Numbered from the stretch's first letter, positions 51,281-58,137 are shown. The stretch: DNA of 64,000 nucleotides from Vulcanimicrobiota bacterium (GCA_963820825.1 CAWGBN010000002.1:224001-288000); one strand, 5' to 3'. The notes: generated by a model not told the origin, from the sequence alone. Numbers and translations are program-made.

Positions 51281-52549
51281 CTACTTGGTTATCATCGTCC
51301 AGTGATACAGCTGTGCGGAAACGCCATAGTGTAGTCGATTGCAGGTTAAATCTCCCTGATTTAATGGTTGACCGTCATTCCCGCTGAGATTTATAAAACT
51401 AGTACCGTTGTGCGTTATTTCAAGATCGGTTGATTCAAAGAATGCTGGAAGTAAGTTGCAATAGTCCGACCATGTTCCATCCTTAACCGCGTGTTCTTCG
51501 AAGAAATCCCAGCCCGTATTGCCCATTGTGGTCAAGGTTTGACCGGACGACCGGTACTTCTCGTCCCAACGTCCGCTCTGGTAATTATATAATTTTGCAA
51601 CCCAGATATTTCCGCCAGGCAAATGCGTCGTTTGTACGGTGTATTCCCCGATGCCCGAACCAAAGTCACGCACGTATTGGCTTATAAACTCGGCATTTAC
51701 TATGAGCGGTACCGCCGGATTATTTACCATCGCGTTGCACCAATCCCAAAACCAAACCTGCGCAGGACCGCTGCTATATGCCGTAACGACTTCAATACAA
51801 GCTCCGTCTGGAGCGAGCATTGTCGGAGCATACAGGTAGCTACCAGAGTCGGCATCAAACCGCAGCGCCGGGTTTACGCTCTGGTTTGCATACGCCGCTT
51901 TGATCGCATTCGAAGCGCCCATAAAGAACCCGCGACCTGCATAAACTCGGAGCGGCGTGCCCGCGGGAGCGGGCAGCGATTTGCTATGGAGGAACAGTAG
52001 CCGCTGTTTGGACGGATCCTTCACGGATAATACGGTTGCGGGCGCAGTTATCGGTAGCCCCTTTTTTTCCTCATGCATAGCAGCGGAAACTTCTCTGAAG
52101 CTTGTGGCTGCGGTGCTTAGTGCCAGCGACGGCGACATGGTTGCCGCCGTCGAGGTTGCGGGGCTGGAGGAGCTTGTCGCGTTTCCCGATGGGGTGCCCG
52201 TCGCATTTGCCGACGGGGCAATCGTCGGGGCGGCGCCGCTCGATAACGAACTTGGTGATACCGAACTACCTACCGAAGCACCACCTAATGGCGAACTTGT
52301 TGCAAAGGGCACGTAGTCCTTGTACTCTGTCACGAAAGTCGCGCGAACTTGGCTCGGCGGTGGCAGCGGTTGCGGCGCTACTTGGGCGACCTCCTCTGGG
52401 GGCGCAGGCGTAGCCTTTATCAAGACAACCGTCGGAGCTGGCGCAGGCTTTACGTTCCCGCCCCTGCAACCAGACAGCAGTACGAGGATACTCACGCTCG
52501 CGGTAAGCATCCCAAACCTTGAGATTCGAGCAGTGTGCATGAGAGCCAT
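51281..52549 (-). CDS. Hypothetical lipoprotein with Ser/Thr-rich linker and C-terminal beta domain
   Basis: Lipobox LLSGC, low-complexity linker, YAPTMLAPDGACIEV...WFWDWC...GWDFFE domain, AT-richer codons. Confidence 0.75.
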   Translation of the reverse strand: MALMHTARISRFGMLTASVSILVLLSGCRGGNVKPAPAPTVVLIKATPAPPEEVAQVAPQPLPPPSQVRATFVTEYKDYVPFATSSPLGGASVGSSVSPSSLSSGAAPTIAPSANATGTPSGNATSSSSPATSTAATMSPSLALSTAATSFREVSAAMHEEKKGLPITAPATVLSVKDPSKQRLLFLHSKSLPAPAGTPLRVYAGRGFFMGASNAIKAAYANQSVNPALRFDADSGSYLYAPTMLAPDGACIEVVTAYSSGPAQVWFWDWCNAMVNNPAVPLIVNAEFISQYVRDFGSGIGEYTVQTTHLPGGNIWVAKLYNYQSGRWDEKYRSSGQTLTTMGNTGWDFFEEHAVKDGTWSDYCNLLPAFFESTDLEITHNGTSFINLSGNDGQPLNQGDLTCNRLHYGVSAQLYHWTMITK

Positions 52550-52817
52550 TGCGACGTGCCTCCATCGGTTGAAGATGCCGAGGCGCCAAGCCGCCCCGCA
52601 TCACGGTAAGACTAGCCACTCAGCTAGCACGTACTAGCTAGCTGGTGCGGTTTCCTATTGAACTGCAGTCAGGGTTGCCATCAGCGCACCAAAGCCGGTG
52701 CCGTGCCTAACCGTAAACGGTCGAAGACCTCTGTCCAGTCGATCGCCTGGTTTTGCGTGGACAGTCTCCTCCTTTTAATTTGAGCGGTACGAGTAATTAG
52801 AGTGGTACAAGGCTCGC

Positions 52818-54467
52818 TTAACAGTTCGGCGGAACGGTAAGAATCGTCATGTCACTTTTCATGGCGTCTTGCGCATTCTTATACGCCGCGGGATCGGAAT
52901 CGATATTTCGTATTAGAATTTGCCCCGGGTCAATGCTGGTAAAGTTGGCGGTGCTCGGATCGGGTGTCGGAATCGTTATTAGCGACGTCGTGGGCGGCGG
53001 AGTGGCAGTTGGGCTCCTACCTAGTGCGGATGCATCGCGTGGATCATAGGGCCCACGTCGTTCGGCCCATAGCTGAATGTCGCTAAATGTCGGCATCGTA
53101 ACATGTTTGCTCCAGTAGCATGCCTCGCGCTGAATGTGCGCATTTTCAAATGCCTCTTCCACGGAACTAACGTCACTGAGACACTTGATGCCTGACGTAA
53201 CACCCGTAACGCCCGAGCAATCCGACGCGATGGCCCCGATCGTCGAAAGCGTTCCCTGAAAACCGCTGGGTGCTGGGGCCGGCGGGGGAGGTGGGGTTGG
53301 AAGGCTGTCGATGAACTGGATAGCAGCGGTCGCCAGGAAGAGATTCCTGACGTAGTCGTCCGCCACATAGGTGCCTACATTTTCATTGGTCACTTGGGCC
53401 AATAGACTTGGCGAAGTCGACAAGTATGAGGCCAGGTCTCGCGAGTCTATTTGCGTTTGCGCGTTGAACGCCAGAGTTTCGGCATCTGTTGTGCTTAAAG
53501 GTGATGGCGTTGCAGTAGCCGTCGGGCTCGTGGCGCCGGTGACTTGCCCGCTGGACAACAGTTTGTTCGCTGCAGCAATATCGCCTTGATAGTCAGCTAG
53601 AACATCATTAAATAGATCGCTGCACGTGGGCTTAGAGGGCGAAACAGAGGGGCTCGGTGACGGCGCCGAGCTTGGCGAAGCTGACGGTGCAGCTGAATGC
53701 GCTGTCTTAGCCTTAGTGGTTTTTGTTGAGCTACCGCTGCCTTGTTGGCTGCTCTGATGGCGTCCGCGTTGAGTTGGATTTGGCGATGCTAGGTAGCCAT
53801 CTAACTGGTAAGCGTCGTCGAACCCTAGGGGAGCGACGCCAACTTCGGAGCCACCGACATCGCTTACCGAGTGCATAGAAACGTAGACTACGTCGCTATA
53901 TCCAGTTAGAGAAGCGACGGAATCAGGGATCGGAGGCGTCTTGTTTTTTTTTGATTTATCTGAAGCGCTGTTATTCTTTTTATTGCTTGCCGAACTACTT
54001 GCTGAAGGTGTGGGAGATGCAGTCCCCGATGGTGACGAACTAGGACTGGCCGTTGCGGGTGTAACGAGCGCCGTATTCCAACAGCTGCGCAATGTTTCGA
54101 ATTTGCTGCGCCATTTCATCTCTGCCGCGGGGTTCTTGACGATCGTTATCTCGTATGCAATATCTGCCATGACAATCCCGCGCATCGCCTGAAGACTGAG
54201 CTGGTGAGGGTCGGGCGATGCTCCTGGACTTGAAGTCCCGAACAGCGTGAGGTCCATTACCGTTTCGCCCTGCTTTACGCTCCCTTTTGAGCGAAGCATT
54301 GCGGACTCGTACTTCAGGAAGAATCCAATTGCGGCCGCGCCGATCGCACTGATGATGGCAACGGTCCACGCATGACCATCCCAGGTCCAGGCATTGGCGC
54401 GCCTGGGTGGAGAGAGAGTAGCAACCAGTCCGGCCAGAGCAATGAGGGCGAGGAAGCGTCGCAGCAT
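52818..54467 (-). CDS. Hypothetical secreted/membrane Ser/Thr/Pro-rich protein
   Basis: GGGAGG RBS, signal peptide plus a second hydrophobic segment, long low-complexity tracts, several Cys, AT-richer codons. Confidence 0.72.
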   Translation of the reverse strand: MLRRFLALIALAGLVATLSPPRRANAWTWDGHAWTVAIISAIGAAAIGFFLKYESAMLRSKGSVKQGETVMDLTLFGTSSPGASPDPHQLSLQAMRGIVMADIAYEITIVKNPAAEMKWRSKFETLRSCWNTALVTPATASPSSSPSGTASPTPSASSSASNKKNNSASDKSKKNKTPPIPDSVASLTGYSDVVYVSMHSVSDVGGSEVGVAPLGFDDAYQLDGYLASPNPTQRGRHQSSQQGSGSSTKTTKAKTAHSAAPSASPSSAPSPSPSVSPSKPTCSDLFNDVLADYQGDIAAANKLLSSGQVTGATSPTATATPSPLSTTDAETLAFNAQTQIDSRDLASYLSTSPSLLAQVTNENVGTYVADDYVRNLFLATAAIQFIDSLPTPPPPPAPAPSGFQGTLSTIGAIASDCSGVTGVTSGIKCLSDVSSVEEAFENAHIQREACYWSKHVTMPTFSDIQLWAERRGPYDPRDASALGRSPTATPPPTTSLITIPTPDPSTANFTSIDPGQILIRNIDSDPAAYKNAQDAMKSDMTILTVPPNC

Positions 54468-54878
54468 TTAACCTCCCACGGAATAAATCACCCTGCAAAC
54501 ACCAAGCTGCCGCTGACGACGCCCGCAAGCCCCTTCTCGCAGGGAAGAATGAGCATGACAGCTTGCTTTGGACTGGCTATTCCGGCTAGCCCATTTGAAG
54601 CCTCTTGCTGAGCCTTCCCCGTGCGGGCGGTGCGGGGCGCCAAAAGCGCTCAACGGCAAGCCGCGGTAGGCGGAGCCGTTCGGGGGCCTGGCGTTGGTCC
54701 GACCAAACTGCGACAAACCTCCACGACACGGATACCCGAATCATTGCCGCGGTGCCACGACGATGCGCTCTACGGAGCCCGGTGCGGTCCTCTGCTGAGG
54801 GCCCAATGCCTGGCGCGAAAGTGTGACTCCGCTGGCCTTAGGGCCACCCCGCTTTCCAGCCAGATAGTACAGGCTAAG

Positions 54879-56432
54879 TTAATGGCCGACGCCGGATAAA
54901 TGCCCGCGCGCCGCCGCTTCCGCAACTAACGCCGCACGATTGTTTACACCATAGGCTCGGAATACGGCCTTCAGATGATTCCTAACCGTATGCTGGCTTA
55001 GACCAAGTTCAGAAGCAATTTCGGCAGTAGTCATCTTGCGGCAGAGCATGCCGAAGACTTTACTCTGCATGGGCGGCAACTTAACGGGTGGATTCGACGC
55101 CGCCGACGCCCGATCGCGAAGCTCGCGGGCGAGCCACGATTGGGGGAACGCCTCGAGCTTGTCCTCGGCGAGGTGGCGCCAGCGCTCCTTCTTCGTCACT
55201 TCAAATAACCTGATCGCCGTACGCGCGGCACGCCAATCGAAGCCGATCCGGTCGAAAATAACCCACGCAGCGCGCAAGACCTCTTCAGCGCCGGCGCCTT
55301 TGCCGGACATCCGAACGACGCCCTCGGTGTACGCGGCATAGGCTTCGAGGCGATGGTCGAAGGCGAAAAGATGCAGCGGCGAGCGGATCCGGTCGAGTCC
55401 TTTATACCGCGCGAGATAGTACCGCCCTCGCTCCGGGTCGATCTCGACCGTGGCTCTGGCGAGGAGGAGCAAAGCCAGTCGCTCCTCGCCGGCCAAGGCG
55501 TTCCAATCGATTCGCTCGGCGACGTTCTCGGCCTGAGCGATTTCGTCGAGTGCCCAGTTCTGCTCCCCGACGATGCGCGCGAAGTACGCGCGATCCAGCA
55601 ATAGGATTACCCTGAAGGCGTCGCTAGGGATCCGGCGCTCCGCGGCGCGCAGATACCGAAAGCATCCCAGCATATCGCCGCGCAACGCGCACGACCAACC
55701 GACGGTGACGAGCGCCTGGAATCGCTGCGTCGTAAAGTCTTCCGGCCACTCGATGGGCTGATCCACCTCGCTTCGCGCTAGCGCTACGGCTTCGTCGAAG
55801 GCAAGTTCGCGTCCGAGCAGCGCGAGGTTTTGAACGGCGTGAAACCACTCTTCACGATACTGCTCGCGGTGTTTTCCGATCAAACCGATCGCCTTAATTA
55901 ACGATTGCGCCGCCTCACGATAGCGCTCTTCATGGCAGTGGATGAACGAACGCAGCAGCTCGTTGGAAACTTTTGTCGCGTGCGACTTCTCGCGAGCCAT
56001 TTCGGCCGTAAGGCGCCATGCTTCATCGGTACGGCCCTCGAGCATCTGACGTCGGGCGATGTGGTAGGTGAGTTGGGCCCGATCGGCTGCCGAAGACAGC
56101 GTGCGCTCCGCTTGAGCGAAGTGCTCGTCGGCGCGCTCAAAATCATGCATTCGCGAGTAGCCGACGCCGAGGAGCATCGCCCACTTCCCGCGCTGGCCGG
56201 CGGGGCGCCCCTTCGGAGGACGCCGGATGAGAAACGCTACGGCGCGGTTTTCGTCGTGCTTGAGCAGAATTCGGGCTCGTAGCAGGTCGTCTTCATAGGT
56301 CGTGGCCGCGCCATCCGAAACGGCGGCGTCGTAGGCATCTCCTGCAGCGAGGAATTCGGCATTGGCGTAGTGACTGAGCATCGCATCGCGCCACTCCCGC
56401 ACCCCAGCTTGCTTCTTTGGCATAGCCGTCAT
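54879..56432 (-). CDS. TPR-like helical sensor with C-terminal LuxR-type HTH transcriptional regulator
   Basis: Long all-helical N-terminal region with TPR-like repeats. C-terminus LPPMQSKVFGMLCRKMTTAEIASELGLSQHTVRNHLKAVFRAYGVNNRAAL. No REC or ATPase motif. Confidence 0.85.
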   Translation of the reverse strand: MTAMPKKQAGVREWRDAMLSHYANAEFLAAGDAYDAAVSDGAATTYEDDLLRARILLKHDENRAVAFLIRRPPKGRPAGQRGKWAMLLGVGYSRMHDFERADEHFAQAERTLSSAADRAQLTYHIARRQMLEGRTDEAWRLTAEMAREKSHATKVSNELLRSFIHCHEERYREAAQSLIKAIGLIGKHREQYREEWFHAVQNLALLGRELAFDEAVALARSEVDQPIEWPEDFTTQRFQALVTVGWSCALRGDMLGCFRYLRAAERRIPSDAFRVILLLDRAYFARIVGEQNWALDEIAQAENVAERIDWNALAGEERLALLLLARATVEIDPERGRYYLARYKGLDRIRSPLHLFAFDHRLEAYAAYTEGVVRMSGKGAGAEEVLRAAWVIFDRIGFDWRAARTAIRLFEVTKKERWRHLAEDKLEAFPQSWLARELRDRASAASNPPVKLPPMQSKVFGMLCRKMTTAEIASELGLSQHTVRNHLKAVFRAYGVNNRAALVAEAAARGHLSGVGH

Positions 56433-56437
56433 GATTA

Positions 56438-56464
56438 GGCGGCGGGGGGCAAGCCCCCGCCGCC
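56438..56464. other. Strong GC hairpin between peptide and regulator genes
   Basis: GGCGGCGGGGG-GCAAG-CCCCCGCCGCC (11-bp stem), no U-tract. Confidence 0.7.
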
Positions 56465-56478
56465 GCCTCGATTTGCCG

Positions 56479-56679
56479 CTAGTGGCCTCCTCCTCCGCCG
56501 GTTCCCTCTCCCGGCATCGTGCCACCGCCTCCGTCGGTTGGGCCGGGCATCGTTCCGCCGGCGCCGTCCATCGGTCCGGCGATTGCGCCGCCGGCCGCGT
56601 GAATCGAAGCGCCGGAACCTCCGGAGAATCCGGTTAAGAATCCAAATAGCAGTGCGAGCCCGTGAAGAAACAGGAACAT
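56479..56679 (-). CDS. 66-aa secreted Gly-rich peptide with tandem core repeats (candidate signalling propeptide)
   Basis: AAAGGA RBS ~8 nt before ATG. Hydrophobic leader MFLFLHGLALLFGFLTG, then GPMDGAGGTMP-GPTDGGGGTMP-GEGTGGGGGH. Confidence 0.72.
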   Translation of the reverse strand: MFLFLHGLALLFGFLTGFSGGSGASIHAAGGAIAGPMDGAGGTMPGPTDGGGGTMPGEGTGGGGGH

Positions 56680-56818
56680 CGGGACTGTCCTTTCTGCCGC
56701 ACAAGCCACGGCAAGTACCAATGAGCTAGCTCAATCGGCCAGCTTACTTGGATTATCGGACAGTTTAGGGGGCGGTCAATAGGGACAGGGGGTTACTTCG
56801 TCGCTTTCTTGAGCGTTC

Positions 56819-56888
56819 GTCCATCGACTGCGGCGTTGCGCGCCTGCGCTCAGGATGACAAAGTGGGGGCGCTTCGCTCAGGATGACA
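56819..56888 (-). repeat. REP-like element (one full copy and one partial copy)
   Basis: Reverse strand TGTCATCCTGAGCGCAGGCGCGCAACGCCGCAGTCGATGGAC (56860-56819) and a second TGTCATCCTGAGCGAAG (56888-56872) that supplies the GT4 stop codon. Confidence 0.7.
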
Positions 56889-58137
56889 AGGTGGGCGTCA
56901 GTTTGCGGGCGAGCAGCGTCAGAACGCGGGGCCAAGCGTAGCGTTTCGCCGTTGCTGCGCCGCCGTCGCGGATCGCCGAAGCGAGTTTTCGGTTAGCGAT
57001 CAGTTCCGACAAATATATCGCAAGCTCGTGCGGATCGGCGGTGTCGCAGACGATCGCGTTGTCGAAGGGCTGCACGTAATCTTCGCCGGTCGAGCCGGTC
57101 ACGGCGATGCCGCCGGCGGCCATCACCTCGAGTCCGACGAGCCCAAAGGGTTCGCGTCCGCTGTTGGCCAGCACGCCGTCGGCGATGCAGTAGAGCGCGA
57201 GGAGCGCCTCCTCCGGTACGAAGCTGCGGACGTTGAGCACGTTGCCGGATGCCGATGCGATCGCGGCGATTGCATCGCGCGGATCGCGCGAGGCAAGCGC
57301 GAGATCCCGCACGTCCAACCCAAGATCGCGCGCGTGCGCAAAGATCGCGTCGCCGTAGGCTTCGCGACCACCTCGCACCACCAGCGCCGCATCCTGATGC
57401 TCGGCCGCAATCGCGGCAAAGGCCTCGATCGCCTGCATCCAGCGCTTCTCTTCTTCGAAACGCGCGACTTTGACGTAGAGCGGGCGGCGCTGCCGCCACA
57501 CCTTCTCCGCGAATCGCACCAGTTTCTTCGGCGCGCCGTCGAGCAGTCGCTGCGGAATGCCGTTCGGAATGACGAGCGATTCGACGCCGCGTAGTTGCAG
57601 CTCGAACTTCATATAGCGGCTGACCGTCGTGATCTGCGCGGCGCGCGCGAGCGCATCCCAGTCGATCGTATCGAAGCCGTAGGTGTTGTTCGCGTTCCAC
57701 GTCAGAACCGCGCGATCGCGCAGGCCGCGCTCGCGCAACCGCGCGTCGAGCGCGATCGCGGCCGGGGCGGTCTGCCAATCTTCGGCGATGACCAGCACCG
57801 CTTCGCCGCGCGCGGCTGCCGGCTCGACGATCGTCTCGACGACAAACGGCGGCACGCTAGCCGTAAAGTCATTCATCTTCGCGATCTCGCCATCGTAGAC
57901 GCTGCCGGGGTAGTAGGCCGAAATCCACTGGCACCAACGGCGATATTCGAGATTCGGCGAGAGCCGCTCGACCGGCGCGCTCGTCGGATCGCCGACGAAG
58001 AGCAGGGTCGTGCAAACGCCCGCTTGAGCGAGCGCGCCGCTGAGCTCGGTAACTCGGGTGCCGAGTCCACCGACCATCGAGTACCGGTCGGGTCCTTCGA
58101 ACGAGAGCAACACCGCATTGCGCGGCAATGGAGTCAT
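56878..58137 (-). CDS. Glycosyltransferase family 4 (GT-B)
   Basis: VGGLGTRV, EDWQT, VIPNGI, EPFGLVGLEVMAAG. Confidence 0.88.
   Translation of the reverse strand: MTPLPRNAVLLSFEGPDRYSMVGGLGTRVTELSGALAQAGVCTTLLFVGDPTSAPVERLSPNLEYRRWCQWISAYYPGSVYDGEIAKMNDFTASVPPFVVETIVEPAAARGEAVLVIAEDWQTAPAAIALDARLRERGLRDRAVLTWNANNTYGFDTIDWDALARAAQITTVSRYMKFELQLRGVESLVIPNGIPQRLLDGAPKKLVRFAEKVWRQRRPLYVKVARFEEEKRWMQAIEAFAAIAAEHQDAALVVRGGREAYGDAIFAHARDLGLDVRDLALASRDPRDAIAAIASASGNVLNVRSFVPEEALLALYCIADGVLANSGREPFGLVGLEVMAAGGIAVTGSTGEDYVQPFDNAIVCDTADPHELAIYLSELIANRKLASAIRDGGAATAKRYAWPRVLTLLARKLTPTLSS

Follow-up and report, generated by a model that had tools for sequence, protein, structure and literature searches.

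A small propeptide-like gene paired with a TPR-LuxR regulator: a candidate peptide-signalling cassette conserved in a family of Eremiobacterota

Why does a very small gene with a hydrophobic leader and a repeated glycine-rich core lie directly ahead of a gene for a TPR-like protein that ends in a LuxR HTH? The pair was found in a 64,000-nucleotide stretch of a Vulcanimicrobiota genome (the whole of which is referred to here as the window), and an earlier note, made from the sequence alone, had read it as a candidate peptide-signalling system. From comparison of the cassette (Table 1) with related loci, this interpretation is partly supported.

Table 1. Features of the cassette and its surroundings (positions counted from the first nucleotide of the window)
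Feature	Positions	Strand	Basis or remark
Sigma-70-type peptide promoter: -35 TTGACC, 16 nt, -10 GATAAT	56752..56779	minus	promoter scan; -10 region kept in orthologues
Palindromic box, candidate operator, beginning 7 nt downstream of the -10	56724..56744	.	best N7 site in genome, 25.8 bits
Ribosome-binding site AAAGGA, ATG 8 nt further on	56688..56693	minus	kept among orthologues
Propeptide candidate, 66 aa	56479..56679	minus	hydrophobic leader, Gly-rich linker, two D-G-x-G-G-T-M-P cores
G+C hairpin without U-tract	~56438..56467	minus	sequence; between peptide stop and regulator
TAATC after hairpin	56433..56437	minus	near regulator start in 37/42 loci L001-L046
Regulator, 517 aa from first ATG, TPR-like superhelix and GerE/LuxR HTH	54879..56432	minus	ORF, domain search, model
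Second box, ~100 nt upstream of 549-aa gene	54571..54591	.	matrix scan, 11.8 bits
Exported-looking accessory protein, 549 aa, 55% G+C, candidate target	52818..54467	minus	no family
Third box, 73 nt upstream of 422-aa gene	52622..52643	.	best N8 site in genome, 21.9 bits
Lipoprotein-like accessory protein, 422 aa, 54% G+C, candidate target	51281..52549	minus	beta-sandwich C-terminal domain

Judging from sequence comparison among relatives, the 66-aa ORF is a real gene under purifying selection. Its ribosome-binding site is as good as had been claimed, and the ORF lies upstream of the regulator in all 28 close orthologues (the window clade). Across 32 close pairs of peptide ORFs, which are not independent of one another, differences at codon positions 1/2/3 numbered 284/209/636, and single changes comprised 433 synonymous versus 173 non-synonymous. 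Peptide length varies from 45 to 73 aa within the window clade while the core stays, a sequence of approximately D-G-G-G-[TS]-M-P (D-[GST]-G-G-[TS]-M-P-like) being found in 27/28 peptides, close to the DGxGGTMP-type core predicted in the earlier note. The tandem arrangement described there is present, with cores GPMDGAGGTMP and GPTDGGGGTMP followed by a degenerate GEGTGGGGGH, but this third repeat shows no conservation. Similarly, the proposed export leader is indeed hydrophobic but without the basic residues expected in a Sec signal; it has neither a basic n-region nor a lipobox, and both features are missing from 26/28 window-clade leaders, which leaves the export and topology of these peptides uncertain.

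The regulator had been described as a protein of ~517 aa starting 46 nt past the peptide stop. An ORF of this length does run from the first ATG; translation, however, probably starts at the second Met (position 56423; 514 aa, 55 nt past the peptide stop), since close orthologues begin there. The domain content fared better: a GerE/LuxR HTH was identified at residues 456-504 (E 7.5e-08), no receiver or ATPase (NOD) family was detected in the Pfam/NCBIfam domain search, and a confident AlphaFold2 model (pLDDT 96, pTM 0.90) is all-helical from residue 6, comprising a helical superhelix over residues ~6-446 and a four-helix HTH. In sequence searches the window regulator gave only a trace of TPR_2 (E 0.065); Pfam TPR_2 matched 10/42 family members, with the TPR part of the window protein unmatched at E 0.01. 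The top structural match was MalT domain III (1hz4; Z 24.8, rmsd 4.7, 326 residues aligned), ahead of APC5 (Z 21.4), LGN (20.4), APPBP2 (19.9) and RapI (19.7), with phage Rap (18.8), AimR (17.9), NprR (16.8) and PlcR (13.1) lower in the ranking. Foldseek returned generic TPR matches, Rap and MalT included, and an ESM Atlas search with the TPR part returned only generic actinobacterial TPR clusters (0.90-0.91). A TPR-only profile search also recovered generic TPR proteins, with no MalT or RRNPP chain among the best 60 of its 103 matches; a MalT-like origin is therefore argued from fold and domain order only. No NOD-fused relative of greater length turned up among 8000 candidates, which is weak evidence on this point.

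Members of the regulator family are mostly 500-530 aa in length, and seven residues (G252, R281, W310, L321, R361, R401 and W433) do not vary across 42 members. The idea that regulators without a peptide lose pocket residues was rejected, as these proteins keep nearly all conserved TPR residues; for the same reason, such residues cannot be tied to the peptide. Complex prediction with regulator residues 1-447 and peptide residues 27-66 gave a score of 0.01, which counts neither for nor against binding. Also identified were TPR-only members of 436-455 aa (L115, L122 and L124), which have no HTH and keep an upstream peptide; their output is possibly through Rap-like protein interaction.

The family was sampled at 135 loci, comprising the five closest, the 30 best class matches, 99 from the 150 listed of 629, and the paralogue in the window's own genome. 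Removal of four duplicates and of a locus with just 3 nt of upstream sequence left 130 loci, a sample that leans to close relatives. A detector for short ORFs whose N-terminus is hydrophobic and which contain a D/E/N-x-G-G-type core, a motif chosen after the data had been seen, identified an upstream co-oriented candidate at 84/130 loci versus 26/500 control long ORFs (taken from 1292 long ORFs of the window's own genome), and a candidate in any adjacent position at 99/130 loci versus 74/500 controls. Curation by eye, which removed two false matches and swapped two others for a second candidate, yielded 97 peptides, of which 81 are upstream, 13 divergent, 2 convergent and 1 downstream of the regulator; the linkage outlasts these rearrangements. 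Six more peptides recognized by eye bring the total to 103/130 loci, two others look frameshifted, and 25 have no peptide. The adjacency of a small ORF that the earlier note had expected among regulator homologues is thus consistent, both in the window clade and across the sample.

We also identified a shared DNA element, absent from the earlier note, ahead of the peptide genes. The promoter scan itself found one promoter versus 1.8 expected in shuffled sequence, and the peptide promoter counts because orthologues keep it rather than on scan statistics. Just downstream lies a palindromic box with the consensus CTAG[CT]-N-[AG]CTAG, overlapped in the window by weaker sites at 56710-56731 and 56737-56758. 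Exact TAG[CT]-N7-[AG]CTA was found in 19/97 peptide upstream regions versus 4/4733 control regions, and exact TAG[CT]-N8-[AG]CTA in 39/97 versus 11/4733. Box matrices scored above 10 bits in 76/97 peptide upstream regions versus 2/800 controls, a circular comparison in that the training set is the test set. A less circular measure is the strict palindrome, of which 73 genomes of the genus contain just 9 copies; 6 of these are at a cassette peptide promoter, two of them from loci outside matrix training. In 25/28 close loci the box starts 4-9 nt past a -10-like hexamer, and an extra half-site often lies on the -10, which is the position expected of a repressor site. Where the peptide gene is divergent or downstream, the box has moved with it. 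The HTH helix hardly varies (T482 and N485 in 125/126 members, H486 in 120/126), as would fit one shared site. Although the palindrome can also be folded as an RNA stem, the constancy of its spacing and the conservation of its half-sites speak for protein binding; against the operator role, another factor could read the box. The arrangement suggests that the regulator is a repressor with a small local regulon.

Box-bearing loci also include unusual variants. At L061 and L073, the peptide ORF appears frameshifted between leader and core with the box intact, which would reflect sequencing error or signal-mute alleles. A 12-locus peptide-less clade (L067, L070, L074, L081-L083, L085, L092, L096, L098, L101, L130; also L118) has a perfect box between the regulator and a divergent gene for a 131-aa stand-alone AraC-type HTH protein, a possible eavesdropper relay.

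Within the window, the 549-aa and 422-aa genes that follow the second and third boxes are low in G+C, rare and exported-looking. The former recurs in 1/60 relatives, and the absence of a box upstream of this only relative (at L147) counts against a fixed target. The latter is no conserved neighbour of the cassette. Genome-wide, 37 box sites exceed 11 bits, five of which lie in this 4.3-kb part of the window, with two training sites and one intragenic site among the five. Boxes elsewhere are often ahead of lipoprotein genes, and many have no obvious gene; in the genome-wide regulon scan, most of the 29 sites listed had no adjoining ribosome-site-led gene. The lipoprotein genes behind further boxes of the window's own genome, at G000:C7:200018-200066, C6:522619 and C7:368891, one of which is phosphoesterase-like by motif, are candidate distant targets. 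For the 422-aa protein, the C-terminal domain has conserved C-I-E-V and G-W-D-x-F-E motifs, a Peptidase_A4 cluster appeared at rank 13 in the Atlas, and a low-confidence model of the domain (pLDDT 47) matched neprosin best (Z 6.2), a score that other jelly rolls equalled; searching solved structures by sequence with this domain gave no match. A neprosin/G1-type glutamic peptidase is a weak lead from this model, and such an enzyme, if Pro-specific, could cut or clear the Pro-flanked cores.

Two further observations concern the flanking DNA. Between 43589 and 51191, glycogen and sugar-nucleotide genes, which we take by motif to be branching, debranching, amylomaltase and nucleotidyltransferase/mutase-like, show many frame breaks, which are probably assembly errors. 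Between the glycosyltransferase stop and the peptide promoter (~56845-56890), as also at L003-L005, are short REP-like repeats of the GTCATCCTGAGC type, with a copy number that varies among relatives.

Phylogenetic reconstruction of the regulators (129 sequences, FastTree) revealed that, among the clades listed, cores are clade-specific, with types including DGGG[TS]MP, DSGG[IVG]MTG, DNGG, DSTGGM, DSVGGM, D[ST]xG[EQ], NTNGGIPA, ESHGG, DSVGGGP and DNFG. For regulators that are 20-30% identical the core similarity is 0.37, and it climbs to 0.94 where they are 90-100% identical, for cores that are Gly-rich, of low complexity and easy to match. Between same-genome paralogues the extracted core differs in 22/22 pairs; the four pairs whose regulators are at least 60% identical have near-identical cores. 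The co-variation with the TPR sequence anticipated in the earlier note is therefore seen insofar as the core follows the regulator tree, as co-evolution predicts, but the same pattern is expected from linkage and co-inheritance alone. Leaders divide into those with a basic n-region and a lipobox (42/97) and those with neither (51/97), the window clade belonging to the second class. Its sister clades L034 and L035 carry nearly the window-clade core on a lipoprotein leader. In the 97-peptide set, 12 cores are present in at least two copies, up to 13. At least 13 divergent loci have the core directly after the lipobox Cys, from where it would be hard to release as a free peptide. At L127:4051-5400, L120 and L114 this placement is at the N-terminus of long lipoproteins, so that peptide and cargo are fused; the L127 carrier is a 449-aa GloVer-repeat protein.

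The five closest named loci belong to Ca. Cybelea / Eremiobacterota. Consistent with the diderm host assumed earlier, the genome encodes BamA, and it also encodes signal peptidase II, an M50 protease and 9 family-5 peptide-binding proteins, so that oligopeptide-binding genes are present too. Only one member of the phylum has been cultured; its envelope is Gram-negative, and the words 'quorum', 'LuxR' and 'peptide' do not occur in the accessible part of its description (PMC9758169). Regulator matches were found in 223/301 genomes of the class and 218/263 in the window's family, tallies that include five unpublished genomes, on which nothing else here depends. A profile search was positive for 97/113 genomes of that family (1-7 matches per positive genome), 3/18 in two related families and 0/69 from 18 further families of the phylum; exhaustive searching of proteins recovered 568 matches at 1e-10, without taxonomy. 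Within the phylum searched, the regulator family is thus almost confined to one Eremiobacterota family, of which one genome (G001; one contig, 99% complete) had no regulator match. A single paralogue is encoded in the window's genome. Its aligned part is 27% identical to the window regulator, and ahead of it is a lipoprotein-type ORF of 121 aa in which D-S-V-G-G-G-P-V-P units are repeated in tandem. Elsewhere, two cassettes or regulators lie 3-7 kb apart (G081:C5, G242:C10, G039:C2, G090:C1), and in G081 and G242, where both cores were read, they differ.

We assign a probability of roughly 0.55 to the reading that these loci are one-component peptide-signalling cassettes, RRNPP-like but separately evolved, in which an imported peptide lifts repression. 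A regulator dimer would bind the box and repress the peptide promoter, given that the transcription start, and often the -10 too, falls within the box. The propeptide would be exported, as a lipoprotein in many clades and through a non-canonical hydrophobic leader in the window clade, and cut to a short peptide starting near Asp (D-G-G-G-T-M-P-G type). This peptide would build up outside or in the periplasm, return via an Opp/Dpp-type ABC importer and bind the concave TPR face, where the invariant Arg281, Arg361 and Arg401 might hold its Asp or C-terminus. Peptide binding would free the HTH from DNA, resulting in positive feedback on the peptide gene and induction of accessory surface or secreted proteins. 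Because same-genome paralogues have different cores and a common box, several channels would converge on one operator type. The retention of the core while linker length and leader type change counts in favour of signalling; the peptide-less loci count against it, as does the neighbourhood comparison across loci, in which no recurrent dedicated protease, exporter or importer was found beside the cassette.

The region between the two genes raises the alternative that the ORF acts in cis, its translation opening the hairpin by attenuation or ribosome stalling in the style of SecM/MifM. The GC hairpin noted past the 66-aa ORF is present, although it lacks a U-tract and is absent from the terminator scan output. 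It may end the peptide transcript, and/or the TAATC that follows may precede a leaderless regulator message. A signal-like leader, a Pro/Gly-rich end and a conserved hairpin before a regulator start without a clear Shine-Dalgarno sequence would all suit attenuation, but the hairpin is past the stop, three loci that keep the peptide (L014, L029 and L030) have lost it, the core-to-stop distance varies widely, and the pairing persists where the peptide gene is divergent, downstream or convergent (16/97). We consider this mechanism very improbable. A better but still unlikely candidate is that the small gene is merely a target, encoding a surface or secreted effector, an adhesin-like tag or a modified-peptide precursor, while the regulator senses some other small molecule via its MalT-like domain. 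MalT domain III, the best fold match, has a sugar as its ligand. Furthermore, the window cassette adjoins glycogen-metabolism genes, with an upstream glycosyltransferase common to 5 close loci; the box is also found ahead of unrelated lipoprotein genes, and cores are at times fused to long lipoproteins (L114, L127). However, the sugar context is lost beyond a few close loci, recurrent modification enzymes are missing from the compared neighbourhoods, and other box-bearing neighbours change between loci while the peptide stays. What is conserved and amplified is just an 8-residue core, a pattern that suits a ligand rather than a folded effector.

Of similarly low probability is a cell-autonomous role, in which the peptide binds the regulator but is never a public signal. 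It could be a cofactor similar to AfsS, or a tail that is anchored in the membrane and faces the cytoplasm; alternatively, precursor accumulating in the cytoplasm whenever Sec or lipoprotein export jams would tune lipoprotein gene expression. Such a role has a precedent in AfsS-AfsR (PMC10832544), makes outer-membrane passage unnecessary, and agrees with the 51/97 leaders that are non-canonical and with candidate targets that are mostly exported proteins. Conversely, the 42/97 peptides with textbook lipoprotein signals are at odds with it, as is the occurrence of one core type on both leader types in sister clades, and an export monitor has no obvious need for many orthogonal cores per genome, such as those of the 22 paralogue pairs.

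How the proposed peptide-signalling cassette relates to known systems was assessed by its architecture. A small adjoining propeptide gene and a predicted cytoplasmic TPR superhelix recall the RRNPP/RRNPPA systems (Rap-Phr, NprR-NprX, PlcR-PapR, Rgg-SHP, ComR-ComS, PrgX, AimR-AimP), and the HTH-less family members recall Rap. A description of RRNPPA systems (PMC9765709) also reports multi-copy cores, some lipoprotein-type export and peptide-less receptors, and the 66-aa window peptide lies within the 10-100 aa used for RRNPP propeptides (PMC10075063). RRNPP propeptides leave the cell by Sec, or by PptAB in the SHP type, and the mature peptide is taken up again to bind the TPR groove; on the export side, the window leader is hydrophobic without a basic n-region or lipobox, and 42/97 family peptides have lipoprotein signals. 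In contrast, the window receptor of 514-517 aa exceeds the 250-500 aa set for RRNPP receptors, and the peptide gene is usually upstream in the new family, unlike RRNPP. As the earlier note had recognized, the architecture is inverted: RRNPPA receptors have an N-terminal HTH or three-helix bundle (PMC9765709), whereas here the TPR region is N-terminal and the LuxR/GerE HTH C-terminal. RRNPP hosts are Bacillota or their mobile elements, whereas the window derives from the diderm phylum Eremiobacterota. The cassette is not a member of RRNPP, since domain order, receptor length and host phylum all differ, and each of these three is a defining feature. A survey with RRNPP_detector was run on Firmicutes and discarded clusters with an N-terminal TPR region (PMC10075063); on both counts it would have missed the new family.

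With MalT/LAL (STAND) proteins, the regulator shares a superhelical sensor domain followed by a C-terminal LuxR HTH. In MalT, it is domain III that precedes the LuxR HTH. The window regulator differs in lacking a NOD ATPase or winged-helix domain, and MalT systems have no adjacent peptide; the regulator is not a STAND protein. In heterocyst-forming cyanobacteria, PatS-HetR provides a diderm example in which an intracellular transcription factor is the target of a short peptide, but it has no TPR receptor, adjacent cassette or orthogonal codes, and the peptide is thought to move within the filament. AfsR-AfsS also combines a TPR-containing regulator with an adjoining small repeat protein, Streptomyces AfsS binding AfsR through its repeats and co-regulating targets including afsS (PMC10832544). 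However, AfsR has a SARP-ATPase-TPR organization and the window regulator has no SARP-ATPase, and the available text of the AfsS paper lacks the words 'secreted' and 'signal peptide' (PMC10832544), whereas the peptides of the new family all have hydrophobic leaders. In the literature searched we found no description of the system, although subscription journals and supplements could hold one.

Together, these findings point to a cassette family that is real, conserved, apparently undescribed and probably convergent with RRNPP. A bolder reading, to which we give somewhat less than even odds, is that the cassettes constitute a second, independent form of cytoplasmic-receptor peptide quorum sensing, derived from a MalT-like sensor-LuxR module minus its ATPase. 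It would employ dozens of orthogonal D-x-x-G-G codes on interchangeable lipoprotein or short hydrophobic precursors in outer-membrane bacteria. All receptors would converge on a single CTAG-based operator controlling accessory surface proteins, and cleavage or removal of the signal might fall to a glutamic peptidase regulated along with them. Two sources present peptide signalling via cytoplasmic TPR receptors as a trait of Bacillota (PMC10075063, PMC9765709). With a receptor, a predicted 8-residue ligand and a predicted operator specified, the proposal is testable without culture, and cross-tests between clades provide specificity controls. If it is true, the cassettes would offer orthogonal peptide-inducible switches for Gram-negative hosts, and would pose the problem of peptide transport across two membranes. 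The design would have evolved twice, from different parts, the multi-paralogue system would be widespread in a diderm soil lineage, and it would represent the first communication mechanism for Eremiobacterota.
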